This document shows positions 10,019 through 60,747 of a stretch of DNA of 64,000 bases, piece by piece (position 1 is the stretch's first letter; each line of letters starts with the position of its first letter). Under the pieces are notes generated by a model. It saw only the letters and a program-made list of their open reading frames with translations, had not been told where the DNA came from and did no database searches. Location of the stretch: assembly GCA_032718475.1 (NCBI GenBank), contig JAUCBJ010000331.1, positions 2,157 through 66,156 on the forward strand, in the 5' to 3' direction. The position numbers and the translations under genes are program-made. The DNA is from Nemertoderma westbladi. Taxonomy: Eukaryota > Animalia > Xenacoelomorpha.

Positions 10019-10109
10019 CCACGTTATTCTTCCTAAAGATTTAGCTAAATTGGTTCCAAAATCACATTTAATGACAGAAACGGAATGGCGAAACATCGGT
10101 GTGCAACAG
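10019..10109 (+). CDS. CKS1: Cks1/suc1 coding exon 2
   Basis: Acceptor ttatttatttacag at 10018. Encodes (R)[30 protein letters not shown], with donor CAG|GTGAGT at 10110 (phase 0). Phase is compatible with exon 1. Confidence 0.97.
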
Positions 10110-17573: not shown

Positions 17574-17575
17574 AG

Positions 17576-41300: not shown

Positions 41301-41346
41301 TAACTGCTCTGGTCTGTAACTGCTTTGGTCTGTAACTGCTCTGGTC
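35338..41346. repeat. 16-bp satellite (gtctgtaactgctctg) x ~370 with variant units and duplicated blocks
   Basis: Directly visible. Confidence 0.97.
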
Positions 41347-41425
41347 GGGTGGTCCAAGCTGAGTACAATACCTACGAGGAACTGTTTTACGACATCGCGT
41401 ATCTAGCCATCGACGAGGCGTTACA

Positions 41426-43981
41426 ATGACAACAAATAACGTATCCGATACCGACGAGATGGATCACCACACAGACTCGGAAGCCGACGAGGTACCAAAC
41501 GTCAACAACATGACCCGTCGGTTAGGGGCTCTTAAAGGCGGAGTATCCCGAGCGTATCAACGGATGGAGAAACAACTCAAGGGAGTCAAAACCCCCCTCA
41601 ATGAGGTACAAACTCAGCTTCAAAGTATCCGAAATATCCTACAGCGGTACGAAAGAATGATACAGGCGTACCAAGAGCTCGTTCCCCCCACCGATCTGGA
41701 AAACTACCCCAAGTTGGAAGAACATGTTGTACATCTAGATGGGTTCCGCAAACAACACCGGAGGACCCTCAGCCTTGTGAGAGGCTATGAGGAACAGTAT
41801 TACAAGAGGGCTGAAAGAACAGACGCGGAATCAGTACGATCCTCGAGCATCAGGACAGCAGTACATCGAAAGAGAACGGGGTCCGTTAGAAATCAGCACT
41901 CCAGCGCTAGGAGCGAGATATCCGGCTCAGCGCGCAGTTCTCAAGGGGCGCCGCCACTCCGAGACCAACTGCGAGAACGGAAGGCATTAGCCCTCAAAGC
42001 TCGGATGGAAGATGAGTATATTCAACTGCAAGCCGAGCAAGATGTATTAGCCGCCGAAACACAAAAGCGAGAGGCCGAACAAGCGGCCGAACGGCAGGCC
42101 GAACAACGCGAACAGGAGGCCGAACAACATAGACGAGAGGCCGAACGGCAGGCCGAACAACGCAAACAGGAGGCCGAACAACATAGACGAGAGGCCGAAC
42201 GGCAGGCCGAACAACGCAAACAGGAGGCCGAACAACGCGGACGAGAGGCCGAACGAGAGATTGAACAACGTAAATGGGAAGCGGAAATGCGTAAACAACA
42301 CGCCGAGGCCCAAGCAATTCTCATCCACAAAAAGAATGCGGATATTGCAAAACTCGCAGAATACGAAGCCGCACTTATAGAACGAGATATTCAACTCTAC
42401 GAGGACTGGGAAAGGGATATAGATCAGGAATATGAACCAATTCCGGTACCGGAGTTAGAAAAGTCATTTACACCAACAGCGGCGAAACCTCCGAAACCCG
42501 AGATCCCGCCTACCAAACAGTCTACGCTATCGGCACAAGCCCTGGTGTTCCATCCCCCACCGGCTACGCTAAAGAATGAGGAACCTTATTTCCCATCCAA
42601 CACCACGACAGCGAGTGTACCCAAGTACGAGCCTGAAAAGGACTCGGAACGGGACGCCACTCCCCGATCGAACAACCCATTTACATCAACACCACAAACT
42701 CGTAGCCGCGTCATTATTAAAACTCCACCTATTATTGATCCATCAAGTATGGGAGTGAGTGCCAATAACTATAACCCTCCGAGTCACTCCAGTTCAGATG
42801 ACGTCAGCATCATCCGGGTGTTGGAGAACCGCCTTGCCATGCCTAAGATGGAGATTCGCACCTTCGAAGGAGATCCCGTCGATTACCTCAGATTCAAGAA
42901 ACGGTTCTTTGCGCAGATCGGATCAACGGACATAGCCGACGCACAGAAATTGGTATATTTATCACAATACCTGGGTGACAAACCACGCAGAATTATTGCA
43001 TGTTTTGAAGGAGGTTCTCATGAGGCATACTATGACGCATGGAAAACTCTGGATAAAAGATACGGAAATACCGGAACTATAATTAATAAAACTCTAGAGA
43101 GACTGATACAGGACGCGGGATCACTAGGGGAACCACAGAACATACAGGAATTCTCCGACTCTATGAAGGATGCCTACTATACTCTGAAACCCTTAAATAA
43201 GGAGGACCAGGTGAACAACATTCTAAACCTCCGACAGATCGCCAAGAAGTTCCCCGGATGGTTACAAAGTAAGTGGGCTTATAAATGTGTAGATCTCCGG
43301 CGCAGACATCCAGATCGAGATCCTAGCTTCCTTGAAATGTCGGCATTCCTAGACGATATCTCCGAAGCCATGAATGACTCAATGTTTTCAAAACAAAGTC
43401 TCGCAAAGTTGGACGGAATAGAGAGCAACTCCAGGAGTAAGATAACCCCTCCGAAACCGAGATTCCGCCCCCCACCGGTAAGTACGATGGCCATTACCAT
43501 GGCCGAGGATTCCGACGACGAAGACTACGAGGAACCGACATCCGCCGAGGAATGGGCATGTTATCTCGCGAATTGGGCACCCGAAAGGGAAGGCATCACA
43601 AATTCCCTGCTCTGTCTCTTCTGTGGGGAGAAACATAAAGTGGAATTCTGCAGAAAGTTTCAGTTCGCCGAACTCGTCCCACGCTTCGAGGCAATAATGA
43701 AACACCGAGGATGCTTCCGGTGTCTTGGAACAGGTCACTATGTTCGGGAGTGCGACCAAAGATCATGCTGTGCTGTCTGTAACGACCAACGCCATCACAC
43801 GCTCCTCCACATCCCCACGAACTTCGATTTTACTACCCTCCCCTTTCGGATCGAAGCCAGGCGAAGAGGAGAAACAAACCACATCTTCAAAGGAACCCGG
43901 ACAACCCAACGGAGAGAAACCAACCCGTTTAAAATCTCCACCGATACACCACAAGTAACCAATATTTCTGGCCACGATTAA
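41426..43981 (+). CDS. gag: BEL/Pao Gag (coiled-coil repeats, DUF1759-like core, three Cys/His knuckles)
   Basis: PKMEIRTFEGDPVDYLRFKKRF..KLVYLSQYL, then CLFCGEKHKVEFC, CFRCLGTGHYVREC and CAVCNDQRHHTLLH. Confidence 0.92.
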   Translation: MTTNNVSDTDEMDHHTDSEADEVPNVNNMTRRLGALKGGVSRAYQRMEKQLKGVKTPLNEVQTQLQSIRNILQRYERMIQAYQELVPPTDLENYPKLEEHVVHLDGFRKQHRRTLSLVRGYEEQYYKRAERTDAESVRSSSIRTAVHRKRTGSVRNQHSSARSEISGSARSSQGAPPLRDQLRERKALALKARMEDEYIQLQAEQDVLAAETQKREAEQAAERQAEQREQEAEQHRREAERQAEQRKQEAEQHRREAERQAEQRKQEAEQRGREAEREIEQRKWEAEMRKQHAEAQAILIHKKNADIAKLAEYEAALIERDIQLYEDWERDIDQEYEPIPVPELEKSFTPTAAKPPKPEIPPTKQSTLSAQALVFHPPPATLKNEEPYFPSNTTTASVPKYEPEKDSERDATPRSNNPFTSTPQTRSRVIIKTPPIIDPSSMGVSANNYNPPSHSSSDDVSIIRVLENRLAMPKMEIRTFEGDPVDYLRFKKRFFAQIGSTDIADAQKLVYLSQYLGDKPRRIIACFEGGSHEAYYDAWKTLDKRYGNTGTIINKTLERLIQDAGSLGEPQNIQEFSDSMKDAYYTLKPLNKEDQVNNILNLRQIAKKFPGWLQSKWAYKCVDLRRRHPDRDPSFLEMSAFLDDISEAMNDSMFSKQSLAKLDGIESNSRSKITPPKPRFRPPPVSTMAITMAEDSDDEDYEEPTSAEEWACYLANWAPEREGITNSLLCLFCGEKHKVEFCRKFQFAELVPRFEAIMKHRGCFRCLGTGHYVRECDQRSCCAVCNDQRHHTLLHIPTNFDFTTLPFRIEARRRGETNHIFKGTRTTQRRETNPFKISTDTPQVTNISGHD

Positions 43982-44000: not shown

Positions 44001-47000
44001 ATGGTTTTCGCAAAGGTAATCCCAGTAAGGATCCAAGGAGTCGGCAAATCTTTGACGACACTCGTGTTCCTCGATAACGGGTCTGACGGAACCATCATCG
44101 ACCGGGATTTCCTCGAGCAACTCGGCCTAGAATATGAACCTTGTAAACGGCCCATACAAACCATCACCGATAACAGAGAAGTAGAGTCCGGGGAGGTACA
44201 ACTCCAGATGGAAGGAGTGATGAAGGGCTACGAAACGGCTAAGTTAACCATCAAGAACGCCTTGTTACACACAGACCTCCGGGTGCGGTTCCGACAATCA
44301 GCCGAGTATGCCCCCCTCATACAATTGGACCGAGACGATGTAGACCTGAGGTGTCCGCAGTTGGACGTGAACCGTATCACCCTACTGATCGGACTTGATA
44401 TACTGGAACTACACATCCCCACCGGAGATATCGCTCGATCTATAAACCAGGATGATGGATTTTATGCTGAACGAACAATAATGGGATGGACACTCTGCGG
44501 CATTAAGGAGGAAACTACGGACACCTATACCTACCTTCCTAAATGTCAGATTAAAGAGAATGTAACCTCTGTGGGTTATTGCTCAGCTTCGGATCTCGAC
44601 GAGGATTTGTTTCTGGAAACCGAGAAAACCCAACGAGAGATGACGAAATATTTTAATTTGGAGACCCAGGAGTTCGCGGAAAAGGACGAAAACCCATCCG
44701 AAGAGGACCAATATTGTATGGACGTTCTCGACCAGGCCACGTTTAAAGACGGACATTGGTGTTCACCTATGTTATGGAAGGATCCAAACAAACCAATGGC
44801 AAACAACGCCAGCATGGCACTTAGGCGACTTAAAGGGATTCTACGCCGGCTGACTGACCAACCCGAGATAAAGGAGAAATATAATACCGTAATCCAAGGA
44901 TATCTCGATGATGGATTAGCAGAAATGGTACCACGGAATGAACTGCAAGGTGGTGAAAGAACATATTATCTCCCAACCCACTATGTAGTAGAAGCCCGCA
45001 AAGGTGGGAAAATCCGAGTGGTAAATGATGCTGCCGCTATGTACCAGGGCGAATCCCTAAACAGTCAGCTTTACACGGGACCCAACATATATAGTACACT
45101 CATCGGCGTATTGATCAGGTTCAGGGAAAACCGGGTAGCATTCACCTGTGACATCAAGGCCATGTTTCATCAAGTTCGTACGTTACCAAGAGACTCGGAC
45201 TGTCTACGTATCCTATGGACGGATAAAACGCTTACTCAACAGGAGATTAGCCAACTCACGATCAAGGACGTAGACGTAATGCGTATGGTCGTCAGGATCT
45301 TCGGCGCTAAGGACTCGCCGGTAGCATGCAGTAACATGCTAAAGAGGACAGCAACTATGTGCGAAAACGAGTTCCCTCCAACCGTCATAGAAACCATTCA
45401 ACGATGCTTCTATGTGGACGACGGATGCGCTGGCGCGGATAATGTGGATGAGGCATATCGGCTAGCAATGGGGATGGTAGAATGTCTGAAGAAAGGAGGG
45501 TTTCCGCTCGTGAAGTTCAGATCCCACGACAAAACACTTATGGAAAAGTTTCCAGAGGACATCCGGCTGGAAAATAACAAAATGTATTCGGAGGATGTGG
45601 AACATCGTGTACTTGGGATTGAATGGGACATAGAATCAGACGAATTCATCTTCAAATATAAACCCCTACCCAAGCCTATGACAAAAAGGGGATGTTTGTC
45701 GATAAAAAGCGCCATCTTCGACCCACTAAATTTCATATCTCCAGTAACCTTGGCCGGAATGAACCTGATTAAGGAAATGTGGATAGAAGGACTGGGATGG
45801 GACGAAGAGCTCCCCCCATACCTCAGCGTCAAATGGAGAAAATGGACGGAGCAGCTCGAACACCTACACCTTATGCGGATACCTAGACCGTTCTTCCTCG
45901 ATAAATTGCCCACCGATATCTTCCAGCTCCACACCTTTTCGGATGCTTCGAATACCGGAATCGGCGTAGTCACCTTCCTACGGAGACTAAGTAACGATGG
46001 AAACGGCGATACAAGCTTCTTATTCTCCAAAGCAAAGACAGTATCCGGGGAATTCGTAGCAACGATCCCGAGACTCGAGCTACAAGCTGCAGTTTGGGCA
46101 GTAAGACAGAATCGCATGGTCATGCGGAATCTACGGATCCCCATAGAATCTCAACACTTCTGGGTAGATTCGAGTATAGTTCTCTATTATCTCCACTCTC
46201 CATCACGGCGTCACACCACATTTGTTGCAAACCGAGCCACGGAGATTAAACAGTGTACCGGCCGAGAACAGTGGCATCACGTGAATGGGAAGGAAAACCC
46301 AGCGGACTTATCAAGCCGAGGCGCCACCCCAAAACAACTCGGTAAAAGTAAACTCTGGCTTACAGGCCCGGAATTCCTACGGCAGCCACAATTAACATGG
46401 AGTACCCGATTCGACCCCGAGCTCGATAGCGGAAAATACTCCGAGGACGATAAAGAGATCCGTAAAATCCATCGAAGCAACGCGGTGGAAATTTATAGTT
46501 GTCTGACTGAGCCTGCAAAGGACTCGGGCAGGCACTATAACGTCGCGACGATCACTCAACTAGCGGCGTCTTTACATCGGTTGATCGAGCGAACTTCATC
46601 CATGAGACGGCTCGTCCACTACGTTATAACCCTTCGCAACTTCCTACGGTGGAAAAACAACAAACCGATAGTTCAACGGAATATACAAGAACTTATTATC
46701 GCGGAGAAGTGTATTGTTAGATATGTCCAGAAAGAAAGTTTCCCCGATGAATGGGAACAACTTAGTGCGGGCAAAACGTTGAAACCGGACAGCCCAGTCT
46801 ACCAACTGAGACCAATGATGGGAGAGGACGGACTGATCCGACTGAATACCCGGATGGCAAACGCCCCGGTCGAATATGAGGTTAAATACCCGGCGCTTCT
46901 GCCCGGAACGTCGACACTAGCTAAGCTATTAATTCTACAATGTCACGAGGACAACCACCACGCAGGACAGAATTGGATTATAGCTAATATAAGACAAAGA

Positions 47001-48116
47001 TATTGGATCACCCACATCCAGCCACTGATCCGGAAAGTGTTGAAACGTTGCTTCACCTGCAGACGTTACCTAGCGCCACCAATCACCCAAAAGATGGCCG
47101 ACTTACCAGCCACCCGTCTACAAGCGGATTCCCCACCATTCTACGTCACCGGAGTGGACTGTTTCGGACCGTTCACGGTTATTGAACGACGATCCAACAT
47201 CAAATGCTGGGGAGCCATCTTCACCTGCCTAAGGTCTAGGGCAATTTACCTAGATATCGTGGTAAATCTGACACAACACGCATTCATCAACGCTCTGCGT
47301 CGATTCGTGGCGAACAACGGGACATGCCGCCACATGTATTCCGATAACGGTACAAACTTTGTGGGAGGAGAAAGAGAACTTAGAGAGGCGATCGAGGGAT
47401 GGTTTACCGATAACACCGCATCCCAAGTCTGGAAGGAACACCAGATACAGTGGCACTTCCAGACCCCCTTAGCACCCCATACGAGCGGGGTATGGGAGAA
47501 ACTGATCGACCTAGTGAAACGATCCATGCGCGTCGCTCTAGGCGATACCCGGGTAACCCATGACACCCTCCGCACAACATTCTGCGAGATCACGGCTACC
47601 CTGAACAACCGACCCATTGTTCCTATCCGCGACGACCCCACAGACCTGGAGCCCCTCACTCCTAACCACTTACTGGGGAGACCCAAAACCCACGTCCTCC
47701 CGGAAACCATGTTCCCGGATCCCAACGAGATCGCGAAACATACAAACTGGAAAAAGGCCCAAGCGTTGGCAGCGCATTGGTGGAGAATTTGGGCCCAGGA
47801 GTATCTCATAACCCTCCGGACCAGGAGGAAATGGAACAACACCTACAGGAACGTCGCAGTTGGCGACATGGTACTAGTTAGAGAAGATCTCAAAGACCGC
47901 GTTCACTGGCCTGTGGCGCGGGTCGTGACCATACACCCAAGCAAAGACGGACTTGCGAGGACTGTGACGATACGAACGAAATCGGGCCACTACCAACGCC
48001 CCATCCAAAAGCTGTGCCTTCTTGAAGGCAATGATAGCGGTGACTCTACGAGAGGTGATAAGTTCCCTACTCAAGATCCTGCTGCAGACATCGGTGACAA
48101 TTATAAATGCGTTTGA
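44001..48116 (+). CDS. pol: BEL/Pao Pol (aspartic protease, RT, RNase H, integrase)
   Basis: FLDNGSD; DIKAMFHQV..FYVDD; FSDAS..TIPRLELQAA..FWVDS..NPAD; H..H/C..C; GVDCFGP, SDNGTNF, GVWE; WPVARV..RPIQKLCLL. The frame is open from 43959. Confidence 0.96.
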   Translation: MVFAKVIPVRIQGVGKSLTTLVFLDNGSDGTIIDRDFLEQLGLEYEPCKRPIQTITDNREVESGEVQLQMEGVMKGYETAKLTIKNALLHTDLRVRFRQSAEYAPLIQLDRDDVDLRCPQLDVNRITLLIGLDILELHIPTGDIARSINQDDGFYAERTIMGWTLCGIKEETTDTYTYLPKCQIKENVTSVGYCSASDLDEDLFLETEKTQREMTKYFNLETQEFAEKDENPSEEDQYCMDVLDQATFKDGHWCSPMLWKDPNKPMANNASMALRRLKGILRRLTDQPEIKEKYNTVIQGYLDDGLAEMVPRNELQGGERTYYLPTHYVVEARKGGKIRVVNDAAAMYQGESLNSQLYTGPNIYSTLIGVLIRFRENRVAFTCDIKAMFHQVRTLPRDSDCLRILWTDKTLTQQEISQLTIKDVDVMRMVVRIFGAKDSPVACSNMLKRTATMCENEFPPTVIETIQRCFYVDDGCAGADNVDEAYRLAMGMVECLKKGGFPLVKFRSHDKTLMEKFPEDIRLENNKMYSEDVEHRVLGIEWDIESDEFIFKYKPLPKPMTKRGCLSIKSAIFDPLNFISPVTLAGMNLIKEMWIEGLGWDEELPPYLSVKWRKWTEQLEHLHLMRIPRPFFLDKLPTDIFQLHTFSDASNTGIGVVTFLRRLSNDGNGDTSFLFSKAKTVSGEFVATIPRLELQAAVWAVRQNRMVMRNLRIPIESQHFWVDSSIVLYYLHSPSRRHTTFVANRATEIKQCTGREQWHHVNGKENPADLSSRGATPKQLGKSKLWLTGPEFLRQPQLTWSTRFDPELDSGKYSEDDKEIRKIHRSNAVEIYSCLTEPAKDSGRHYNVATITQLAASLHRLIERTSSMRRLVHYVITLRNFLRWKNNKPIVQRNIQELIIAEKCIVRYVQKESFPDEWEQLSAGKTLKPDSPVYQLRPMMGEDGLIRLNTRMANAPVEYEVKYPALLPGTSTLAKLLILQCHEDNHHAGQNWIIANIRQRYWITHIQPLIRKVLKRCFTCRRYLAPPITQKMADLPATRLQADSPPFYVTGVDCFGPFTVIERRSNIKCWGAIFTCLRSRAIYLDIVVNLTQHAFINALRRFVANNGTCRHMYSDNGTNFVGGERELREAIEGWFTDNTASQVWKEHQIQWHFQTPLAPHTSGVWEKLIDLVKRSMRVALGDTRVTHDTLRTTFCEITATLNNRPIVPIRDDPTDLEPLTPNHLLGRPKTHVLPETMFPDPNEIAKHTNWKKAQALAAHWWRIWAQEYLITLRTRRKWNNTYRNVAVGDMVLVREDLKDRVHWPVARVVTIHPSKDGLARTVTIRTKSGHYQRPIQKLCLLEGNDSGDSTRGDKFPTQDPAADIGDNYKCV

Positions 48117-48389
48117 ACCCTTCTCATCATGTTGACAAACTCTTTTTAACTGTGATTTACTGACAATGAGTTATGGACCCCCCTTAAACCAACTGTAACC
48201 ACGCAATGGTATTTGTGTTTCCTCGTGTGTTATGTGGAGTCCAGCATCACCCTGCAGATGTTTCGACTGACGCAGGGTCGTTTATGTTTTGTTTACCCTG
48301 ATTTTGGTCATCAGGACCTACGATATTGGATTATTGGAGATGGAAAAGATTTGAAGTGGAATTCATTGTATTCATCGCAGTATGTTATG

Positions 48390-48812
48390 TTGTCCGTTGC
48401 GTGTGCAGTTCGGGGCGTAGGCGGTGTAACGAGTCCAGCTGTAGATCCCGGATTGCCGCGCAACACCCCCTCTATCCCGTTATTCTGGTGGGTCCATGGT
48501 GCATCCACATGACTTCGACGATAGAGGGTTTTATGTTTCTCAGTCGCGTTATTCTGGTGGGACCGTTGCGTGGATTTTGGGGCGTAGGCGGTGTAACGAG
48601 TCCAGCTGTAGATCCCAGAATGTTGCGTAACCCCATCCCACATGACTTCGTCGACTGAGCTTTATGTTGTTGGGAGTGTTATTCTGGTGGGTCCATGGTG
48701 CATCCACGTGACTTCACTCCCAGTGTCGTCATTGTCCGTTACGTGCGCAGTTTGGGGCGTAGGCGGTGTAACGAGTCCAGCTGTAGATCCCGGATTGCCG
48801 CGTAACACCCCT
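48390..48812 (+). repeat. Three ~170-bp spaced direct repeats between pol and ORF3
   Basis: ggggcgtaggcggtgtaacgagtccagctgtagatccc occurs at ~48412, ~48579 and ~48754, with ttattctggtggg also present three times. Confidence 0.85.
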
Positions 48813-49341
48813 TCCACGACAAAGATTAACCAAAGAAAATGATTGAATATAGTTGGAAACGATGAAAAGGATCAGACAACTCTACTATAAACCTGAATGA
48901 TGATGCGTATGCTGATGAAAATGAAATGATGCGCACCCTGGTGCTGCGCTTATAACAATGATGATAGCCGGGGGGCTATAAACCCAATGATGATGTGGAA
49001 ATAAATAAATGTGAAATAAATGGTGGAAATAAATATGTTGAAATATGTGGAAATAAATGAAATGAGATGAAATAATAATGAAATGAAAAAAGACAAAAAA
49101 AAGGTATAAAAAGGTCTAAGAAAAGAATTGGAAAAAAGAAAGGACAAAAAAGTCATAAAAAACTGGTTGGATATTAATGTATAGTTATAGTAACTGTAAA
49201 TGCTGAATGTATTAGCAATAAGATGATAGATGCCTATATAGCAATGTTATTAATAAACTGAATTAAATAAAAAACTGAATCATTCTGCTATCGCTATAGT
49301 TTCAGACTTTCTGGACTTATAATTAACTGATCTAATTTGTA

Positions 49342-51960
49342 ATGGATATAATCGTAAATATGGACCCAAATCGCCAAATTATCGGCGAATTACGTAACAC
49401 GGTAGATCTACTGGAATATTCGCAACCCGGATCCCCTGACTTTGATACAAATTGGAGCACCCTTCTAAATGAGAACGTGCGAGTCATTAAATTCACCGGG
49501 CGAGAGGGACCGGATTCTAAGAATCTACGAGCCCTCCGGTTAGCCGATGCTAGTACGAGACTGAAAAGAACTCGGAACGCAAAGGCAACCGGAGGGGACG
49601 ATCCGTCGTTTTGGGAAACGTTCCGGCAGAGCGTCTACAGATCCCGATGTTTGATCTACGACAACGAGGGAAACGCGACGCCCACCTCGAAAGCGATTAC
49701 GTTGGCGAGATGTCAAAGTTTCGTCGACGACAAGAGTACGTACCTCGCCCACTGGGGAAACCTTTCGGAGTGTACGGCGACGCTTCGAGAGGAACGCATA
49801 TCGATTATCCAAAACCGAGACGACTACCAGGAAAAGTACGGGGCGAAAGAATACGGTCGATCCTTAGTCGTCGTCCTCGGAACCCTGGACGGTTTGGTAC
49901 TGGTGTGCCGATTATTCCCGACACCCAGACAGGAAGTGCAGGCAGCCGGAGCGATCTGGTTGCTGCCTCCGGAAATCCAAAAGATCCTCTTCGACTTCGA
50001 CGTCATTAAAATCGGGTCGGATATCAAGGCAGACGTCCGGAACGACTACGCGAACGCTCCTGCAGGAAGAAACCGACGAGACGACCTCAACGCCCTTAGC
50101 CATTGCATCGACACTCAAACGCTACTAGCCTGGTTACGATTCGCCGAGTTCATGCGAGGATTCCAAGAGGTGAGACCGACGAAATCCGGGATCGGCTACC
50201 TCGCTGTGCTAAACGGCGGCATCGACTTCAAACCCCAGAAATTCCGGGACTATAATAAAATATACGGTGGATACCCGGGATTGGAAATAAAGAGCGAGCG
50301 AGAGGGTCGATGGAAGGACGTTGATCGGAAGTGGACGATACACCAAAGATGGGAGAATCCCGATCGACGGAACTACGTTTACGTCATTATGGAATGCTAC
50401 ACCGTCGCTAAGTTTATCTGTAAAACTCTCGATAATCTTATTACGGCGGTCCCCCTTTCCTTCGTCGACTACGACTGGAACGAGGTTATAAACCACGCGT
50501 TTAAAGCGGTCGAGAACATTACACCGGGAGAATCGAAAACGCCCGCCGTTATCGATTCCTGGGACGAGAGCGGACCTTACGACATCCCTACGATTACCGA
50601 ACTTCTCGGTGCGGAGGAGCCTCTGATCTCCTCGGAAGGGGAAGAGATATGGCTAAACGAGGGTGTTCTACTCTCCACCCCGAAGCGACAACTCGAGCCG
50701 GAGGCCGCGTATGGACCGGCCGCCAAACGGGTTGCCTCGGCCGAACCGATGAAGAGAGCAGGCGTTTACACCCCACGCGGCTCCGGTAGCCCCGCGAGGG
50801 AGGTAGCCACTACAGCTGCATTGAGCGACTTCGGCGACATATGCCAACGGTTATCCCCGTATCCTTTCCCGGGTGGCGAAGATTGGTCGTCGGAGATTCC
50901 GAGTACCAGCCACCAACGGACCCGCTCAGCGATACTGGTCGAGGAGGGCCCCAGCGATGCGCCGACCCCCGACGATCTCCTCGGTATCCCTCCGTCTAAA
51001 ACCCCGGCACCTCTTCGCCTACCAGCGGTGCCTACTACACCCGCCGTTCCTCAGGACCCTATGCGACTAACCCGTTGGTACGCCGAGCAAACTGAATGGA
51101 TCCACCGCCAGAAACGGTCATCCGAGTTAAGACCAGCGGGACACAAAGAAGGTTATCGGAGCGAGAACCTACTACGCAAAAGCCTAGCATTCCGCGGGCT
51201 ACCGACCACCGAGAATATTCCGAAGAGCGACCGACGACTCGAATACTACGTCGGCGTCCCGATTCCGATATTTCCTGGTCGAGAGATGCAGTTGGAGGTA
51301 TGCGGCGACTGTGGTTCGGAGCAGTGCCCACGCGGCAGAAGGAATCGGGTTACCGATTCATGCCTCCAGCTCCTCGGGATACTCTATTGCCCTTACTGCG
51401 CGACATCGGGCCACGACGTTTCCGTCTGCCCGATCCTTTATAACCTCTGCACCACGTGCGGTTTCCGTGGACATTCCTCTAGCCCCCGCTGCTATATCAA
51501 ATGTCCAACCAAAGACGTTACCGCTATGGGAAATATGGTCATGTTTGAAACGTACGCAAACAGCCACTTAAAGACCAAGGTTCGGAGAAACGCTCGGAAT
51601 ATCGCGCAGGAGATGGCGTGCGGATATTTCTCCTTCCCGGAACGCCTCCACACGTCGGCCACGCTACCCTTCCATTACGTGGATCTGCTACTGAGCGCCG
51701 GATTATTCGGTCCATTCGAAGTCATTAGACGATTATATTCGTATAAAGAGGAGTTCGGTGACGGAGAGTGGTTCCTAGAGGCACGCAAATCTGAGTTGGA
51801 AAGACGAACCGACATGATCCCTATGCCATCGAAAGGAAGAGCCGCCAGGAGACAAGCCGAAGCGTTACTCACGATGGATGTGGACGCTCCCCTACCAGCC
51901 ATAGCGATCGATGAGAGTCGACGGGCGAAGAGACAAAAGGCGTATCAGAGAAAGAAATAG
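49342..51960 (+). CDS. Retrotransposon ORF3: DEDDy-like 3'-5' exonuclease (WRN/Mut-7/EXD-like) with C-terminal zinc knuckles
   Basis: Intact 872 aa. ExoI IYDNEG, ExoII LPPEIQKILFDFDVIKIGSDIKAD, then CIDTQ and ExoIII-like YVIME. C-terminus has CGDC, CPYCATSGHDVSVC and CTTCGFRGH..C. Confidence 0.72.
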   Translation: MDIIVNMDPNRQIIGELRNTVDLLEYSQPGSPDFDTNWSTLLNENVRVIKFTGREGPDSKNLRALRLADASTRLKRTRNAKATGGDDPSFWETFRQSVYRSRCLIYDNEGNATPTSKAITLARCQSFVDDKSTYLAHWGNLSECTATLREERISIIQNRDDYQEKYGAKEYGRSLVVVLGTLDGLVLVCRLFPTPRQEVQAAGAIWLLPPEIQKILFDFDVIKIGSDIKADVRNDYANAPAGRNRRDDLNALSHCIDTQTLLAWLRFAEFMRGFQEVRPTKSGIGYLAVLNGGIDFKPQKFRDYNKIYGGYPGLEIKSEREGRWKDVDRKWTIHQRWENPDRRNYVYVIMECYTVAKFICKTLDNLITAVPLSFVDYDWNEVINHAFKAVENITPGESKTPAVIDSWDESGPYDIPTITELLGAEEPLISSEGEEIWLNEGVLLSTPKRQLEPEAAYGPAAKRVASAEPMKRAGVYTPRGSGSPAREVATTAALSDFGDICQRLSPYPFPGGEDWSSEIPSTSHQRTRSAILVEEGPSDAPTPDDLLGIPPSKTPAPLRLPAVPTTPAVPQDPMRLTRWYAEQTEWIHRQKRSSELRPAGHKEGYRSENLLRKSLAFRGLPTTENIPKSDRRLEYYVGVPIPIFPGREMQLEVCGDCGSEQCPRGRRNRVTDSCLQLLGILYCPYCATSGHDVSVCPILYNLCTTCGFRGHSSSPRCYIKCPTKDVTAMGNMVMFETYANSHLKTKVRRNARNIAQEMACGYFSFPERLHTSATLPFHYVDLLLSAGLFGPFEVIRRLYSYKEEFGDGEWFLEARKSELERRTDMIPMPSKGRAARRQAEALLTMDVDAPLPAIAIDESRRAKRQKAYQRKK

Positions 51961-52125
51961 TGGATCGGGATATTCCAGGAACATTTATCGAACATTTATT
52001 TTTATACAAACTCTAGGCCAAATTAATTAAAAACTATGCAATATTAAATTTGGGTTTTTTATATTGGGAATGACCTACGCAAACTCAATCGACCGACAGA
52101 CTTCACGAAGGTCATTGGGGGGGAC

Positions 52126-53645
52126 TGTTCGCGGTATTTCAACTTTCCATAACGCGAGTTGAATATTTTTGTATTTATTTAAAATTGATTATTCTGATAT
52201 TACTACTGGGTGCGGGACCATGGGTTTTGGGCACATTTAATAAACTGGGGGCGATTTATGGGCGAACTTTGGGGCAACTTACAGGGTACGGGAATAATTT
52301 CATAGTTATAAGGGCCAGGGGGGGATGGAAAATGCAAGCAGTATTCAGGTTAGCCTGAGTACTATTAGGCCCTGGCCAACTTCCTGCTGCCTGTAGGGGT
52401 GGATTTGGTAATGCGCCAGGCCTAAAGGACAAGGACTGCCCTTAGCGGTCCCTGGCCAACAGCAGCCATTACGAGCCTGAAAAGAACTCGGACCGCTGAC
52501 TGCTTGTGTCAGGGATTTGCGACGGGAAACGACGGCCCCTTAGTAGCCAAGCCGTTCTGGTTCTCGATGATCGAACCCTTCGGGGTTCGTGAGGGGTGGA
52601 GCGGACACGCGAACAGGTGGCCAACTAACGACTGCCCCCTGAGCTAAGCCGTACTGGTTCTCGATGACCGATCCCTTCGGGGTTCGCGAGGGGTGGGACA
52701 GACATGCGAAAGGGCTGGCCACAGGACGGGTTTGACGAGAACTGCCCTTAGCGGTCTCTGGTCAACGGCAGCTACTACGAGACTGAAAAGAACTCGGAAC
52801 GCTGACTGCTTGTACTGGGATTTGCGACGGGAACCGACGACAGACCCCTTAGCCAAGCCGTACTGGTTCTCGATGATCGTTCCCTTCGGGGTTCGTGAGG
52901 GGTGGAACGGACACGCGATGGGGTCGAAACCCACAGTGCGGGAAAGACAAGCTGGCTACCATTGAAATGAATAGGGGAAGGATAATATGGTGTGTTCGTG
53001 TTCCCATCCTAATAATGTCTGTCGTCTTGGCTCAGCTAAGCTTAAACAGAGCCACAGCCTACAATAGAGCTTTACCTAAATACACTTCCAGTGAGCCAAG
53101 CAGTAGTGGCGGCGGGTTAGCTCCAAAATGCCCATGTAGGATTTCTTCGAAAAAGGACCAATTGGTTGAGTTACGAGTTACAGTGAAAAAGTATTCATGA
53201 TTAGATTTTGCTTTGAACAGGAGAAACAGATGGAATATATATAGGTCATCTAATTATTTGTTTAAAGATTAGCAAACAATACAGTGTAATTGAATTGATG
53301 AAATCCATAAATAAAACTTGGATACAAAATCTAAAATCGGGATGAAAAATATAAATTTCTGAGCTAAGAAAGGGAAATTGGATACTGTTGGAGAGGGAAT
53401 GTGAGAATTGGATACTGTGGGGGTTGGGGAGGGAATGTCCGGAAATCGAAGCCTTTTTCTATCTGCCAACATCCTGGGCTTTACTTACACTCAGCCTCCA
53501 TTCACTGGCTGTGATTGACAAGCTAACGTGCCTCAGAAGTTCCTTTCATGAATGCCGCAATTTATATTTGGCCATTTTGGTCGTTTTGGCCGCCAAAATG
53601 ACCAAATTAATGTTTATTGGGATTGGGACTGTATGGGCCCTAACA
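52126..53645 (+). mobile_element. Probable LTR region between the two BEL elements (3' boundary uncertain), with ~306-bp internal direct repeats
   Basis: Begins TGTT after a purine tract. Repeats start at 52435 and 52741. A possible end is AACA|TGGT at 53645. There is no second LTR copy in the window to confirm the boundaries. Confidence 0.45.
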
Positions 53646-53742
53646 TGGTAACATCAACCCCAATACCAAATAGGGTGACATTCCCCCATTACAATATCAG
53701 CAATATACCCAACCAAGACCAAGAACAAAAACCCCAAACCCC

Positions 53743-56700
53743 TTGGACCAAAATAAATCGTGTGATACCGAGATATGGAGGGGACTGTTACCCCCAATGA
53801 TATATCCAACGCAGAAGAGGTTGACAGGCCCGACGGGCGAACCACACCCAGCAGCAGGGGAATCTGGACAGCACCCATCGAGCCCACTAGAAGTACAGGC
53901 AATGGGAATGGCAACACTCATCGATGCGCTTAAGACCAGGATCGAGCTGCCACCAGTGGAACCGTTCAAATTCGATGGAAGCAGACCGGAAGAATACCTG
54001 CAATTCCAACGCATGTACAGTAATGAAATATTAACAAAGAACTTGACACAGGCAGAGTGCCTAAAATATTTACAAGTTTACACAGGGGGCCCAGCATACG
54101 ACATCGTAAGGCAGTATCAAGGTATCGAAGGTGGATTCACAACTGCATGGCGGTCCCTAGACAGGGAATACGGGCATCCTGCTAAGATCATCCGACAAAC
54201 CTTAACGGGAATTACATCAGGCGGACTACAGGACAACTCTGTCAGCATTAAGACTTTCGCGAATAAAGTCGAAAAGGCGCTGATTGTGCTGAAGACCTTA
54301 GATGCGCCTTACGAACTCAATGCATCGAACAACATCACCACAATAGCGCAGGCACTGCTGATCTGGCTAAGAAACAAGTGGAGGAAGATTGCCTTCTCCA
54401 CCCGGGAGAAGAAAGGTGCGGAACCAGGCCTAGAGGAAATGTCGAACTTCCTCAATTACGAGGCGGAATTGATAACGGACCCAGTCTACAGCGAGGATAG
54501 TCTGGGGAGGGCGCCGAGGACCGAATACAACAGGCCAAAACCAGAACATAGTGCGGCAAATGCGTTACCAAAGTTAAGACAATCGCTACCATACGCGGCG
54601 ATGCAGGGGACTGCTAGTCCACAGATAGCCGGGGGTAGGGCCACACTGTGGCATGAACAGGGACAAAATAATAACACAAAAAAATACAACCCCAACATGC
54701 CCAGTAGGCCAAACCCAAATAATAAGAACGCTAGACAGCTAAGCATGAATATACGTGCAATACGCAATGCACTGTATAGAGAAGGCTATAATCCGAGAAA
54801 CAAATGCCAATTACACTCGAACGCACTCCATCAGACTATGAAATGCAAGTATTTACAGGCGTTTCCCAAACAAGATCAGGTAGAATACGCGAACAGAAGT
54901 GGAATCTGTCATCGATGTGTGGTAGGCGGACACAAGGTTGAACAGTGTAAGGAGACGCCAATAAAATTCGGTCAAGGCAAAGGCCAAACAATGGCGACAA
55001 GCACCATAGGAGCGAAGAAAAGGGGAACGGAACTACTTGGGGTGGTACCGGTGAGGGTGATGGGAGAAAGCAGTCGATCAGTCACGACATTGATGCTTGT
55101 CGACAGCGGAGCAGCCTTCACGCTGGTGGAGAATTAGGTGGCCGAGGAGATGAGGTTACAGACCAGGCCGAGTAGGATGGCGGTAACTACTATCTCGAGC
55201 AAGGATGAGGTCCTGGAGATGAGAACGGGACGGTGCGAGATATCAGCAATAGCACCAGGATGTGATTATGGGGTGACCATCGACCCCATTCAGATAATAG
55301 AATCGATTAATATAAACGCCAAGCGACCCACAAGGATCGAGGTCGAGCAATATCGGGTCCTGGACGATATCGATTTCTCAATACCGGAAGTGGACGTTTC
55401 GGAGGTATCCATTATAGTCGGAATGGATTGTCCGACAGCCCACGAGAGGATATGGACCATATTCGGAGAGAATAAGCAGCACGATCCGATGGTGATTCTC
55501 ACGCCATTCGGATGGACGCTTAGCGGCCCAATTGAGACCAAGATTCCATTCAGGGTGTCGGAGACATCAGGGTGCATGTTCGCAGGTACAATGAGGGAGA
55601 TGGAGGACGAAGGAGCAGAAGAGCAACTTAAGAGGCTGCTGCGGCAGGACTTCGAAGGATTAAAGGAGGCCGGGGTCGGAACCTCGGTAGAAGATAAACA
55701 AGCGATAGAGAGCGTAAAGGAGTCGATGAAGTGCAAAGGGGGACGGTACACCATAGGGATGGTGTGGAGACAACCAAAGCTGCCGTTGCCAGATAACAAA
55801 GGGATGGTACTCACGAGGCTTCGCAAACTGAAGGAGACACTCAGACGGAGCCCCGAGAAGGACGAGTACATCCACAGGACAATCAAGAAATACGTTGAGA
55901 AGGGATGGGCCATGGAGTTACCGGTCGACGAGCCAAACACGGACAGGACCTACTATCTGCCACTGCACATGGCTTTAGATCCAAAGAAGGGTAAACTGCG
56001 GATGGTGGTCGACGCGTCAGCCAAAATGAATGGCAAGAGCCTAAACGACTATCTGCTGGAGGGCCCCAATATCTATAACTCCGGGATAGAGGTCTTGTTG
56101 AGATTCAGAACTGGGAGGCACGCCTTCACGTGCGACATTGAAGGCATGTTCAACCAAGTCCATGTGACGGAAGAAGACAGCGATAGTCAGCGCTTCTTAT
56201 GGTATAACGGCGACGAAATGTTGGTGCAAAACATGGGGGCCAAGTCGTCCTCATTTACAACGACTACGGCTGTGAGAGATACGGTAGAGGGTAAGGAAGG
56301 AGAGCATAGTACGAAGGTGATCGATATGATTCCACACGATTTCTATGTAGACGATGGGATGGGATCTGGAAACATGGTTGAAGAAATACTGGAGATAGGG
56401 CGCGAGGTTTGAGACATCCTAAAAGGATCCTTGTTCAACCTCACTAAGTTCCAGTCCAGCTCCGAGGAATTCATGAAAGCCATAGAAGACAAGCAACCAG
56501 AGTCGACCATGGACAACCCCACAACAGCAAAGGGACAGGATCTGGCGAACAAGAGAGTTGAGTCTCAGCAAAAGGCACTAGGGATCGTGTGGTCCCGGGA
56601 AATGGACGAGTTGGAGTATCAACTGAGCCAAGAGGGTGCAGAGATCCACACTAAGCGGGGCTATGTATCGTACATAGCAAGGATATATGATCCCCTAGGC

Positions 56701-58499
56701 CTAGCATCCCCACTGTTAGTCACGGGGAAGCAACTATTAAAGAAAGTATACAAGTTAAAGGATGAATGGGATACAGAAGTCCCGGAAGAAATAAGTAGAC
56801 AGTGGAGCAAGTGGACGTGGAGTCTAGAGGAGATGGGGACGTACAGCATGCCACGCGTGTATTTCCCGGACGGAGACATGACGGACCTGGATCTACACAT
56901 GTTTTCCGATGCATCTTTGGAAGCATATGGAGCGGCACTTTATTTGGTACAGCGAAAGGGGGCTCATAAGCCCAGACTTGCATTTAGTAAAGCAAAGTTG
57001 ACGCCACCAGATTCAGCATCAGTGCCGAAACTCGAGCTGACAGCTGCGAGGTTAGGAGCAAGGGCCACAGCTTACTTGAGGGACACTATACCTAACATAG
57101 TGGAGACACACTACTGGACGGACTCCATGGTTGTGTTAGGGTGGCTACATAACGAGAAGACGAGATACCCTATATTCGTCGCGAATAGGATAAACGAGAT
57201 AAGGGCGACGACTGACCTAGAAAGGTGGCATTATTGCCCTACCGACGAGATTCCAGCAGATCTGTTATCGAGGCGCGTTGCACGCTGCACCTTTTCGAAG
57301 AAGGAAGAGTTGTGGCAACACGGGCCACACTTCCTTAATGATAGATCAGCATGGCCACCAATGAGGAAGGTGGACCCTGGCTCAGAGGAAGTAGTAGCAG
57401 AAGAGGAGGGGAAAGATCCAGAAGGGGAAGAGATATATAGCCAGTTGGAGAGGGAGATCAAGGAAGTGCCACCGAGATCAGAAGATCCATGTGATAATCC
57501 AACAGATAGGTTTCTCAGTTACAGCTCCAGCTGGTAGCATATTGGAGGGCCTACGGGGATTTCCTTAGGGGAGTTGGCAAGGATGCCAAAAGGAAACCAA
57601 CCATCGATCTGGAAGGAGCGGCTATAGCCATAATGCGATACGAGCAAAGAAAGGAGTACGCTGACGAAGTGGACAGAGTTAGCAAGCAACAACACCTTCG
57701 TCGAGACAGCGAACTCAAAACGCTGTCCCCGCAGTTGAACGAGGACGGGATTCTGGTGATGAATTCCAGAGTGGTGAACAATAACAGCTTAGTTATCCCA
57801 CCAAAACCCATAATAATCCCCAATAAATCACCAATAGTCCACCAGATCATATGGGACTCGCATAAATCGATACTACACGGAGGCACGAATCAGATACGAA
57901 GATACGAAGGACCTTCTGGATCACCCAACTTAGGAAGAAGGTGAAGGCGGTAGTGGGGCAGTGCCAGACCTGCCGACGGACGAGAAAGGAGAGGGCCGTA
58001 CAGGAGATGGCGCCATTACCGGCCAACAGAGTGAGACAACACGACCCGCCATTCACGCACTGCGGCGTGGACATGTTCGTGCCGATTAAGATAAAGGTGA
58101 TGCGGCATACGGAGAAACGCTACGGCATTATCTTTGTCTGCAACAACACAAGAGCGGTGGGAATAGAACTTGCGCAGGGCTACGGCATCGGCATTTATTA
58201 ATGCCTTAGAAAGATTTGTAAGCCACAAAGGGGGAACACTCAAGGTGATATATTCAGATAATGGGACCAACTTCGTGTGAGCGGAGAATGAGTTGAAGAA
58301 GGGTGACTTGGTAATCGTCACTGACGACACAATTTTCAATAACCAATGGAGACTAGCGAGAGTGGTAGATACTTACCCCGACGAGGGCGGAAGAGTCCGG
58401 TTGTTGGAAGTGAGGATAGGAGGCAAGATAGGGGCCAAAGATAGGAAGACATACAGGAGGGCTGTGGGAAAGTGCTGCCTATTGGAAGGGGCACCTTAG
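53743..58499 (+). pseudogene. BEL/Pao element 2, decayed gag-pol
   Basis: Motifs LPPVEPFKFDG, LVDSGA, FYVDD, FSDAS..PKLEL..YWTDS, GVDMF and SDNGTNF. In-frame stops at 55135, 56410 and 57535, several frameshifts, and a deletion in integrase near 58292. Confidence 0.93.
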
Positions 58500-58656
58500 A
58501 GTTTAGATGTCCAATATGTTGGACTGAGGGGGGTGGAATGAGGGCAAGACGCCCTTCCCACACACCAAAAAACACAAAAAAATAATAAAATAAGAAGTGA
58601 GATAGTAGAAAGTTAGAAAGTAATAGTAGTAGATAATAAGATAGTAAGTAGCACTA

Positions 58657-59220
58657 GTTAGAAGTTAGGGAGTGTGGTATATAGACATACCACGAGAGTA
58701 GTAGCAGGGTACATAGTACCGGAGTAGTAGGGTACATAGTACCGTAAGAAGCTAGAAGTTAAAAGTTAGGGAGTGTGGTATATTATTGACATACCACGAG
58801 AGTAGTAGCGGGGTACATAGTACCGGAGTAGTAGGGTACATAGTACCATTAGTAGTAGTTAGAAGTTAGGGAGTGTGGTATATGGACATACCACGAGAGT
58901 AGTAGCAGGGTACATAGTACCGGAGTAGCAGGGTACATAGTACCGTTAGTAGTAGTTAGAAGTTAGAGAGTGTGGTATATAGACATACCACGAGAGTAGT
59001 AACAGGGTACATAGTACCGGGGTAGCAGGGTACATAGTACCGTAAGAGGCAGAGGTTAGAAGTTAGGGAGTGTGGTATATAGACATACCACGAGAGTAAT
59101 AGTAGGGTACATAGTACCGTAAGAGTTAGAAATTAGAGTTAGTAGAAGTTAGTAGTAAGAGAGTAGAGAGTATGGTATATAGGTATACCATAAGATTAGT
59201 AGTAGGGTACATAGTACCGT
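58657..59220 (+). repeat. ~95-120-bp tandem repeats with internal hairpins downstream of element 2 pol
   Basis: agaagttagggagtgtggtatatagacataccacgagagtagtagcagggtacatagtaccg is repeated about 5 times. Confidence 0.85.
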
Positions 59221-59756
59221 AGAGGCTGTGGGCATTGAGAGCGCCCTGAAAGGGAGAGGGGGGCATATGGGTACAGCAGGATAGACCGTGTAGGCCGCAC
59301 GAGACAGACTACTGTACTGCACAGCCCATAGTGTAAGTCTAGGATGTTTGTTACAGTGCCAGGAAGTTGCCTGGTATGAAACTAGCACAGTAGAGAATAG
59401 CTAGTTTTCCCTGTATACAAACTACAGGGGTTATCTAGGTAGAAATAACCCACCATAACCAATAATAGCACACTAAGAGAGAATAAAATAGTATTAGGAG
59501 CAAAATTTAATAAATTACGGCAACAGTAGGCAAAGGATTCTAGAATCATAATTAAAGTAACGGACAGATTTGTAAAATTTAGGAAAATTGGCACTTTGGG
59601 GGACGTATAGGTATACTTAAAATTATACCACAAAATTAGGGTTTTTAGGAGGTAGGCCATTACTGAACAAATACACACCATCTTATTAAACGTCACTCAT
59701 CTAATTGAGCCTTGGTAAGGCACCACCAATAAGGTGAGCGCGCAAGAAAGTTCGTA

Positions 59757-60747
59757 ATGGTGGAGAGACTAGTTAAGAAGAGAAAGATGGAGAGGAGTGG
59801 AAAGGAGATACTAGTGGACTTCACGCAAAGGCATCCGGAGGAAAGGACGAGGGAATACTACAAGCCGCTACTGAAGGGTCACAAAGTGCGAGCGCTGCAG
59901 GACCACTTTAGGGAGATGCACTAGAGAGGACTGGTCGGGACCTACAGGATGCCGTCGTTGGACAACGCGATCCTCGAGGATTTTCGCTACATAGTGAAGG
60001 GAGACGAAGTGAAGTTCGGGATACCGAAGTATCCGGGGGAACCACCGAGAAATGAATGGAGGAGGTTTGTAGAGTCTGTGAGTAGGGGTGGATATGGATA
60101 CATGGTCCTAGACGACGAAGGGACTGTGGAGGATGACGAGGGCTCAAGAAGAGGGTCGGTGGGATCAGCTAGAACCCTACTACTGCATTTGGCCTCGCCA
60201 AATGGAGACATCTTTCTATTCGATCTGGGAACCTATGGGAAGAAGAGCGGGCCGAAGTTAAACCGGTTGCCAAGGGCGGAGCAGGACCTAGTGAGGGAGA
60301 AGACTACAGTGAAGGTGGGATCGGCGATCCGCGACGACGCGGAGAGGATCGTTGGACCGGAAACTCCCAACCTCCTGGACATGCAAGCGGTCTATATGGC
60401 CATGATGGGGCCAGACGGGTTGGGATTGGTAGAGAACACAGTACATTGCGGAGCAGTGGCGATAGGTCAGCTCATGGGGCTCGTCTGCCACAAGCCGATG
60501 GACTGGGGTAAGTTCCGGGAGGAGTACGGAGCGGAACTGGTGAACTCGCTGAAATGGGGAGTGAGGCCAGGGAAACAGGAGGTGTACCAGTTCCGAAGGG
60601 GAGCGATAAAGATATATCAGAAGAGATATATCCTACAGGAGGATTGGATAATGATAGGTTTACTAAACCTATTCATGGCCGTGGTTATCGGAGGAGAGCC
60701 AACAGCGTTTCTGCTATCAGGAGCACCTCTAAACTACAGAAGAGCCT
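59757..60747 (+). pseudogene. Element 2 ORF3 homolog: DEDDy-like exonuclease, premature stop and 3' truncation
   Basis: ATG at 59757 is in frame with 59949, with a TAG at 59922. Motifs WRRFVESVSR..VLDDEG, LLHLAS..IFLFDL, LP..DLVREKTTVKVGSAIRDD, LLDMQ and YILQE. Composition changes abruptly at ttaaccct (~60748). Confidence 0.72.

Follow-up and report, generated by a model that had tools for sequence, protein, structure and literature searches.

The window analyzed here, a stretch of 64,000 nucleotides (nt) from Nemertoderma westbladi (Xenacoelomorpha; NCBI GenBank assembly GCA_032718475.1, contig JAUCBJ010000331.1, positions 2,157 to 66,156 of the forward strand), contains a BEL/Pao retrotransposon copy, designated as element 1, in which intact gag and pol genes are followed by a further open reading frame (ORF), designated as ORF3. 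The usual gene set of long terminal repeat (LTR) retrotransposons is considered to comprise gag and pol, in some cases together with env. ORF3 starts 1.2 kb downstream of the intact pol gene, and its stop codon is located 157 nt upstream of the purine run G7A (52117–52124), which is likely the polypurine tract (PPT) and is followed by TGT at 52126, the likely start of the 3' LTR. An initial annotation, made from the DNA letters alone, had described an intact ORF of 872 amino acids (aa) between pol and PPT/TGT, and both its coordinates and its motifs turned out to be correct. ORF3 is the third gene of the BEL/Pao element, and in several very divergent lineages it is flanked by pol on one side and by the PPT/LTR on the other. 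Its product is probably a BEL/Pao zinc-knuckle-tethered 3'-5' exonuclease, which is predicted to act on single-stranded ends of RNA or complementary DNA (cDNA).

In the ORF3 product a DnaQ-fold domain of the DEDDy exonuclease type is followed by a Pro-rich linker, by three zinc knuckles, and finally by a conserved module at the C-terminus (Table 1). In the exonuclease domain the LLPPEIQKILFDFDVIKIGSDIKAD segment terminates at D231, the putative ExoII aspartate. This segment had been matched to the ExoII motif by eye in the initial annotation, and the match was right, as the D231 column is stable in all alignments. The same stability was observed for the D257-T-Q segment and for the ExoIII segment, which in ORF3 carries Glu in place of Asp. 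The linker shows no conserved columns in alignment A1. Two of the three knuckles are canonical, i.e., C683-x2-C686-x4-H691-x4-C696 and C703-x2-C706-x4-H711-x5-C717, and upstream of these lies a His-less cluster formed by C654, C657, C662, and C674. Thus the Pro-rich linker and the CCHC knuckles proposed at the outset were both recovered, the knuckles together with this additional cluster. The Cys and His columns of the knuckles are invariant or nearly so in A1. An atlas search with the C-terminal part yielded only scores below 0.9, whereby the sole leads, DUF8363 and CCHC, were sub-threshold.

Table 1. Features of the window (positions are those of the window, motif positions are those of the ORF3 protein; RT, reverse transcriptase; PBS, primer-binding site; HMM, hidden Markov model).
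Feature	Position	Strand	Basis or remark
ORF3, 872 codons from ATG to TAG, intact	49342–51960	+	ORF call
DnaQ-fold DEDDy exonuclease domain (predicted), aa ~88–365	49603–50436	+	HMM, AlphaFold, VIA-align
Candidate ExoI motif YDNEG, aa 106–110 (D107, E109)	49657–49671	+	HMM, MAFFT, A5
Insertion of ~60 aa after ExoI, aa 111–172, containing the rival register ISIIQNR (aa 153–159)	49672–49857	+	
ExoII segment VIKIGSDIKAD, aa 221–231 (D231)	50002–50034	+	
ExoIII segment Y347-x3-E351	50374–50394	+	
Pro/Ser/Glu-rich linker, aa 401–640	50542–51261	+	30 Pro in 240 residues
Three zinc knuckles, aa 654–717 (His-less Cys cluster and two CCHC)	51301–51492	+	
Conserved C-terminal module 3' of the knuckles	51493–51741	+	F735, A739, G761 nearly invariant (A1)
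Element 1 gag, 851 aa, intact	41426–43981	+	Pfam DUF1759 8.6e-15; weak zf-CCHC
Element 1 pol, 1371 aa, intact	44001–48116	+	Protease, RT, Pao peptidase_A17 region, integrase, DUF5641
Pol-ORF3 spacer, ~1.2 kb, with AT-rich tail	48117–49341	+	Self-blastn and sequence
G7A polypurine-like run, one C, then TGT	52117–52128	+	Likely PPT and 3' LTR start
Likely 3' LTR of element 1 (inferred)	52126–52976	+	Internal tandem repeats 52428–52918 (self-blastn)
Element 2, degraded BEL/Pao gag-pol	53674–58490	+	In-frame stops 55135–55137 and 56410–56412
Tandem repeat in the element 2 pol-ORF3 spacer, 97–100 nt, five to six units	58644–59222	+	
ORF3 remnant of element 2, with the exonuclease domain and no knuckle part	59925–60845	+	LDDEG, GSAIRDD, LDMQ, Y-x3-E
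Satellite array, 38-nt unit, ~197 copies	10079–17573		Tandem Repeats Finder
Satellite array, 20-nt unit, ~758 copies	17576–32704		Tandem Repeats Finder
Satellite array, 16-nt unit, ~371 units, in place of the element 1 5' LTR and PBS	35341–41346	.	Tandem Repeats Finder and junction sequence

A word-indexed homologue search with the single ORF3 protein gave no match. A whole-library HMMER search among 1.84 billion representative proteins yielded 11 relatives with E-values from 2.5e-14 to 9e-4, all of which are unnamed or annotated as “hypothetical protein” and match the N-terminal domain of ORF3, the knuckle region, or both. When aligned, the relatives present a common N-terminal domain and a C-terminal block, in which three knuckles are followed by an F...A...G module. 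A family profile with 14 members (alignment A3) was then searched against all PDB sequences. Here, the best match was RNase D from T. brucei (TbRND, 7c45_A) with an E-value of 1.1e-9, covering the stretches 29–147 (exonuclease) and 254–298 (CCHC finger). EXD2 was matched with an E-value of 7.5e-9, and its D-x-E, ExoII Asp, and Y-x3-D are among the aligned columns. Further matches were the Lin28 knuckles (4e-8), with Air2 and the retroviral nucleocapsid being weaker, as well as Egalitarian (1e-4), the WRN exonuclease (0.03), and a Mut-7 homologue (0.58). An HMM that was built without the window protein, i.e., without ORF3 of element 1, recognized aa 91–363 of ORF3 with 76.7 bits (E-value 9e-26), and in the ESM feature comparison PF01612 was found in 24 of the 30 nearest clusters.

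Structure predictions were obtained with AlphaFold from two alignments, whereby model 1 used A3 (aa 61–420) and model 2 used A5 (aa 85–385), an alignment of 14 members that share 18–29% identity with the ORF3 exonuclease domain. Model 1 reached a mean predicted local distance difference test (pLDDT) value of 58.6 and a predicted template modeling score (pTM) of 0.61, with 0 residues at pLDDT ≥90, and model 2 reached values of 69.7 and 0.69, respectively, with 43 residues at pLDDT ≥90. A Foldseek search of the PDB with model 1 returned the exonuclease (EXO) domain of Nibbler at 4.9e-4, followed by TbRND, EXD2, RNase D, and Rrp6, and the same search with model 2 returned the At5g06450 gene product (1vk0) at 7.6e-3, followed by EXD2 at 1.6e-2. 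When model 2 was compared to 48161 chains with VIA-align, all of the 50 matches listed were DnaQ/RNase H-like exonuclease or CAF1/PARN deadenylase domains, one of the listed matches named RNase H-like being ESRP1 (Z 7.8). The highest Z scores were those of the Nibbler EXO domain (11.0, root-mean-square deviation 3.7, 174 residues aligned) and of the apicoplast polymerase exonuclease domain (11.0); EXD1 and Klenow (both 10.3), WRN (10.2), RNase D (9.9), Egalitarian (9.1), TbRND (8.8), and EXD2 (8.0) were also matched. Among the viral structures of BFVD the best matches were giant-virus exonucleases with E-values of 0.03 or weaker. The initial annotation had proposed a DnaQ fold for aa ~90–370, and this was borne out, as the profile matches EXD2, TbRND, and WRN, and both models match only DnaQ-fold DEDD exonucleases. 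Thus, at the level of profile and predicted structure, the N-terminal domain of ORF3 was confirmed to have a DnaQ/RNase H-like fold of the RNase D/WRN/EXD2 class.

Whether this domain would be catalytically competent depends on the position of its first motif, for which YDNEG had been put forward in the initial annotation. This register, in which D107 and E109 form the acidic pair, was preferred by the HMM from which the window protein had been left out, by A5, and by seven of eight local MAFFT runs (4/4 modes with the domain-trimmed set and 3/4 modes with the mixed set). In model 2 the YDNEG strand is located in a block with a mean pLDDT of 95 (aa 95–104), compared to 68 in the next block, and the insertion after ExoI is low (pLDDT 45–55). 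In A5 the ExoI Asp is present in 14/14 members and the Glu in 12/14, so that D-x-E occurs in 12 of the 14; the ExoII Asp is present in 11/14, ExoIII shows Tyr in 11/14 and His in 2/14, and the final acidic residue is kept in 12/14. The window protein has all of the A5 catalytic columns in the YDNEG register. At less than 30% identity, every acidic column is kept in 11 of the 14 members, a pattern that speaks for selection on catalysis and suggests that the activity is used. As an origin of the two registers an internal duplication of ExoI was considered, but a BLASTP comparison of aa 61–116 with aa 117–175 gave an E-value of 6.8 and did not support it.

Several results weigh against the assignment of YDNEG and against an active exonuclease in general. 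ISIIQNR is placed as strand beta1 in A1, A3, model 1, and one E-INS-i run (mixed set), and a third ExoI register results from the eight-sequence alignment A4. Since ISIIQNR has no D-x-E, the enzyme would be two catalytic residues short in that register. At least one catalytic residue is missing in 3/14 members. Foldseek gave weaker E-values with model 2 (best 7.6e-3) than with model 1, and the greater confidence of model 2 follows from its alignment. Furthermore, Pfam recognized no family in ORF3 at E ≤1 and none in the 11 relatives, where only zf-CCHC appeared below threshold, and ORF3 does not reach the gathering threshold of PF01612. The kinship with PF01612-type exonucleases is visible only at the profile level; the family profile can be used by annotators for this ORF, which is missed by Pfam. 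Overall, most of the evidence favors YDNEG as the ExoI register of the window protein, whereby the assignment is alignment-dependent, and there is a better than even chance that this protein is an active exonuclease.

It could also be that ORF3 belongs to the element but encodes a catalytically dead DEDD fold, which would serve as an RNA-binding adaptor or chaperone like EXD1, Egalitarian, or Maelstrom, with the knuckles as its main part. We consider this unlikely, but it is the foremost alternative. The ISIIQNR register, which lacks the acidic pair, would be in line with it, and so would two relatives that lost catalytic residues but kept the knuckles, namely P0005, with D-F-K and without the ExoII Asp, and P0008, with D-T-V, Gln, and Lys. 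Egalitarian and EXD1 are both among the matches described above (profile E-value 1e-4 and Z 9.1 for Egalitarian, Z 10.3 for EXD1), and a catalytically dead option is also raised for the rotifer ORFs by Rodriguez et al. (PMC5408684). Against a dead enzyme stand the full catalytic column set in 11/14 such divergent members, the choice of the D107/E109 register by the HMM without the window protein, 7/8 MAFFT runs, and A5, and the better confidence of model 2 compared to model 1 (43 versus 0 residues at pLDDT ≥90).

The assignment of ORF3 to the BEL/Pao element is based on its recurrence in other copies. According to the initial annotation, copies with the ORF outside the LTR-bounded element would have refuted this assignment, and the copies compared here do not refute it. 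Elements 1 and 2 of the window both show the gene content of BEL/Pao elements, i.e., DUF1759 and a knuckle in gag, and Pao peptidase_A17, RT, integrase, and DUF5641 in pol. Downstream of element 1, element 2 presents Pfam matches to DUF1759 (5.7e-11) and Peptidase_A17 (2.1e-42), and its pol shares 31% identity with that of element 1 (tblastn, E-value 2.5e-100). An ORF3 remnant follows 1.4 kb past the element 2 pol; it has no knuckle part but keeps all six catalytic-site columns, and the relative P0006 matches it at 60048–60710 (tblastn, E-value 1.3e-9). Scanning metagenome contigs with the knuckle motif of a five-sequence alignment led to the identification of 14 loci, whereby a BLAST comparison with element 1 pol located a BEL/Pao pol 5' of the ORF and in the same orientation in eight of them (L004, L006, L007, L008, L010, L011, L012, and L013). 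Four others (L002, L003, L009, and L014) have less than 2 kb of sequence upstream of the ORF. L006 encodes a gag-pol of 2277 aa and an ORF3 of 638 codons from stop to stop, and in L010 gag and pol are accompanied by an ORF3 that spans 955 codons from stop to stop. In both loci the intact gag-pol is separated from ORF3 by a gap of 96–270 nt, Pao domains are recognized by Pfam, and the ExoI of ORF3 reads FDTE[SG]. L012 contains a 407-nt repeat with 94% identity (3–409 and 10458–10864), of which both copies end with ACA. The first repeat is followed by a PBS beginning with TGG, which we take to be tRNA-Lys-like, and a purine run with TGT is present at ~10125–10147. The ORF3 remnant of this locus (9379–9969) is located between pol and PPT, inside the TGT...ACA LTR pair. 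ORF3, PPT, and TGT are thus arranged as in element 1 of the window, with the ORF3 stop ~160–175 nt ahead of the PPT and TGT. Altogether, this class of enzyme is found in the env position of BEL/Pao in no fewer than five very divergent lineages, of which two lie in the window and three are groups of metagenome loci.

Sequencing runs are in agreement with this. In two DNA runs 14110 and 6222 contigs, respectively, were matched, with thousands of them on gag, pol, and spacer as well as on ORF3, and contigs of other runs, including one under a second organism label, span both the junction of pol and spacer and that of spacer and ORF3 start. For these reasons we regard it as very improbable that ORF3 is a host gene, or a gene of another mobile element, that was caught between two BEL/Pao copies. 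The points that weigh in that direction, and thus against ORF3 as part of the element, are the following. The window shows no LTR pair, as blastn of 41351–64000 against the window found none, and a 1.2-kb spacer separates pol and ORF3. Between the exonuclease domain of element 1 and that of element 2, BLASTP gave a non-significant E-value of 0.18, and their link is made through third sequences and profiles. Moreover, two homologues have no adjacent pol, namely the intact homologue in L001, with no BEL/Pao pol within 8.5 kb upstream, and the one in L005, with none within 4.1 kb upstream. On the other hand, the order of pol, ORF3, and PPT/LTR is repeated in element 2, in 8/14 loci, and inside the L012 LTR pair, the contigs cover gag, pol, spacer, and ORF3 alike by the thousands, and both spacer junctions are bridged. 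The L001 homologue (8495–10420) comprises 642 codons from stop to stop with VDTES, knuckles, and the C-terminal module, and the neighboring ORFs have no Pfam match; this gene copy may stand on its own or have another host.

Some members of the family deviate in their architecture. At the position of the ExoIII Tyr, the ORF3s of L010 (7178–10042) and L011 (5517–8447) show His, which is DEDDh-like, and they have a long Ser/Lys-rich C-terminal extension, whereby the segment after the knuckles aligns poorly with the module of the other members. In L003 (79–2022, P0005), where the ExoI Glu and the ExoII Asp are lost, the knuckles and C-terminal module are present in two tandem copies. L014 (3–3485) shows an open frame of 1161 codons that runs off the contig start and includes ~640 extra N-terminal residues, which match no Pfam family and appear by eye to be partly coiled-coil.

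In env-bearing BEL/Pao and other LTR elements, such as nematode Cer/Tas and Drosophila roo, the third ORF encodes a membrane glycoprotein and is located between pol and the 3' LTR, as is ORF3. From its position 3' of pol it might therefore be suggested that ORF3 is an env replacement for exit from or entry into cells. We regard this as hardly credible, since ORF3 is without membrane features: in accordance with the initial annotation, the hydropathy scan revealed no transmembrane anchor, and no signal peptide is present. The most hydrophobic window of 19 residues (Kyte-Doolittle 2.04, aa 174–192) corresponds to the beta2-beta3 hairpin of the predicted exonuclease fold and not to a membrane helix, and in BFVD no viral glycoprotein was matched.

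For the favored reading of ORF3 as a zinc-knuckle-tethered exonuclease, a mode of action can be proposed. Catalysis would rely on a pair of metal ions, as it does in RNase D, and would involve D107/E109, D231, and Y347/E351, provided that the window copy is competent, as its residues suggest. By analogy with the zinc-finger domain of T. brucei RNase D, the knuckles might hold the single-stranded substrate. The protein would presumably act in the ribonucleoprotein of the element, and its most likely substrate would be RNA bound to the element. The 3' end of the element RNA, the primer transfer RNA (tRNA), the ends of the cDNA, and host small RNAs are candidate targets. The roles put forward in the initial annotation, i.e., action against silencing, processing, and proofreading, are guesses. 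A further-reaching idea is that a widely distributed and highly successful BEL/Pao lineage possesses its own Nibbler/RNase D-like trimming nuclease as a counter-defense enzyme, which, guided by Lin28-like knuckles, would attack the 3' ends of host PIWI-interacting or small interfering RNAs or strip tails that had been added to element RNA. This is speculative and, in our estimation, rather improbable; if true, it could help to explain the wide presence of the family in the sequencing runs of the host.

The initial annotation had regarded such a cargo as unfamiliar for BEL/Pao. In this respect it stood, as no paper was found that describes a DEDDy ORF in BEL/Pao, whereby the phrase matching of “BEL/Pao” may be imperfect and part of the papers was judged by title or abstract. 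The exonuclease mention that was checked, in PMC5029228, proved to be a row of a Pfam table. Judged by title, the rotifer paper described below and two reviews were the only relevant papers on DEDDy exonucleases and retrotransposons. However, the class of cargo itself is not new. RNase D-like DEDDy ORF3s are reported in the Juno/Vesta LTR elements and in the Athena/Terminon Penelope-like elements of bdelloid rotifers, where they show a change from DEDD to DEED, have no membrane features, and were left without an assigned function (Rodriguez, Kenefick, Arkhipova 2017, Viruses 9:78, PMC5408684). Compared by this description, the Juno/Vesta ORF3 resembles the one reported here in being an extra RNase D-like DEDDy ORF 3' of pol within an LTR element, in having no transmembrane or coiled-coil features, and in that the final Asp may be Glu in both. 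It differs, as far as described there, from the present ORF3 with its BEL/Pao host, its 240-aa linker, its three knuckles, and its C-terminal module, and a text search of PMC5408684 gave no match for Pao, “CCHC”, or “zinc knuckle”. The paper gives one to two full-length copies per rotifer family, whereas 14110 and 6222 contigs were matched here. The cargo class is known; to the extent that could be checked, the novelty lies in the BEL/Pao host, the added knuckles with the C-terminal module, and the distribution over several divergent lineages.

Among cellular enzymes TbRND (PDB 7c42–7c4c), the best profile match, comes closest in that an RNase D-class exonuclease and a CCHC finger are combined in one chain. 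Its C-terminal zinc-finger domain is reported to boost RNA binding and cleavage, and its catalysis to involve two cations (Gao et al. 2020/21, NAR 49:568, PMC7797062). TbRND is, by the same account, a cellular mitochondrial enzyme that acts on guide RNAs and carries one zinc-finger domain near the exonuclease, whereas ORF3 has three knuckles past a 240-aa linker and a C-terminal module that TbRND lacks. EXD2, WRN, and Nibbler/Mut-7 EXO (6k17, 2e6l/2fbt, 7jw2/7jw6) have the DnaQ fold and the DEDDy layout in common with ORF3 but are enzymes of the cell that function in repair or in small-RNA trimming and have no knuckles; they share only 12–19% identity with it. EXD1 and Egalitarian also have the fold in common with ORF3. 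Together with Maelstrom they are catalytically inactive DEDD derivatives, as in part discussed in PMC5408684, whereas most ORF3 family members keep the acidic residues. In the papers searched, nuclease cargo was so far reported only from the low-copy Juno/Vesta and Athena elements of rotifers. Here, the same enzyme class occurs together with a triple knuckle in the env position of BEL/Pao, with one family reaching thousands of contigs in the host runs. This raises the question of why a retroelement needs a 3'-5' exonuclease, be it for the processing of RNA or cDNA ends, for the handling of the primer, or for defeating small-RNA silencing.

The classification of element 1 as BEL/Pao, as given in the initial annotation, holds for gag, pol, and PPT/TGT, but the copy is not whole and its 5' LTR is lost. 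Pfam analysis of pol yielded Peptidase_A17 (4.8e-38), DUF5641 (1.6e-28), and Integrase_H2C2 (1.8e-8), and the RT motif YVDD was seen in the translation. The zf-CCHC match of gag is weak (E-value 0.0066, 16.9 bits at a cut-off of 20.8 bits). Paired TGT...ACA LTRs with PBS and PPT around all ORFs were not found for this copy. The 16-nt satellite stops exactly at the truncation of element 1, 80 nt 5' of the gag ATG. In other copies of the element, as represented by contigs of four runs, non-satellite DNA is present upstream of 41341–41347, and thus the window copy lost its 5' LTR and PBS to the satellite. Because these are replaced by the array, the window copy is not self-mobile. When short pieces of the upstream DNA of the other copies (5' of 41341) were sought in the window, no credible match was obtained, which is a further point against the assignment of ORF3 to the element. 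Since this DNA does not occur in the window, it gives no position at which the putative 3' LTR would stop. Many contigs from the sequencing runs break at 52918–52976.

The spacer between pol and ORF3 in element 1 contains repeated units of ~80 nt at ~170-nt spacing (48390–48817). Spacer repeats are thus present in both window elements (58644–59222 in element 2), and the spacers of L006 and L010 are short (96–270 nt). The repeats could constitute an internal promoter or an expression signal for ORF3. An Rfam search of 41000–64000 gave no family. The 10-mer GGGGACTGTT at the PPT/TGT junction (52120–52129) occurs again 1660 nt downstream (53780–53789), just 5' of the likely gag start of element 2; ~0.06 chance occurrences would be expected per 64 kb. 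Within gag of element 1 a 54-nt (18-codon) tandem repeat was noticed at 42085–42306, the product of which is rich in Glu, Gln, Arg, and Ala and probably forms a coiled-coil. In run X4, which is labelled “DNA?”, one contig has a loose end before 52337 (52336–52337) that resembles the end of a cDNA template-switch adaptor. It was taken only as a hint that X4 contains cDNA and that transcription might begin ~210 nt inside the putative LTR. Among the runs listed for ORF3 there was no RNA run. Long “ORFs” over the satellite arrays, e.g., 10013–17584 on the minus strand, were rejected as repeat artefacts. The three adjoining arrays show a strong strand composition skew.

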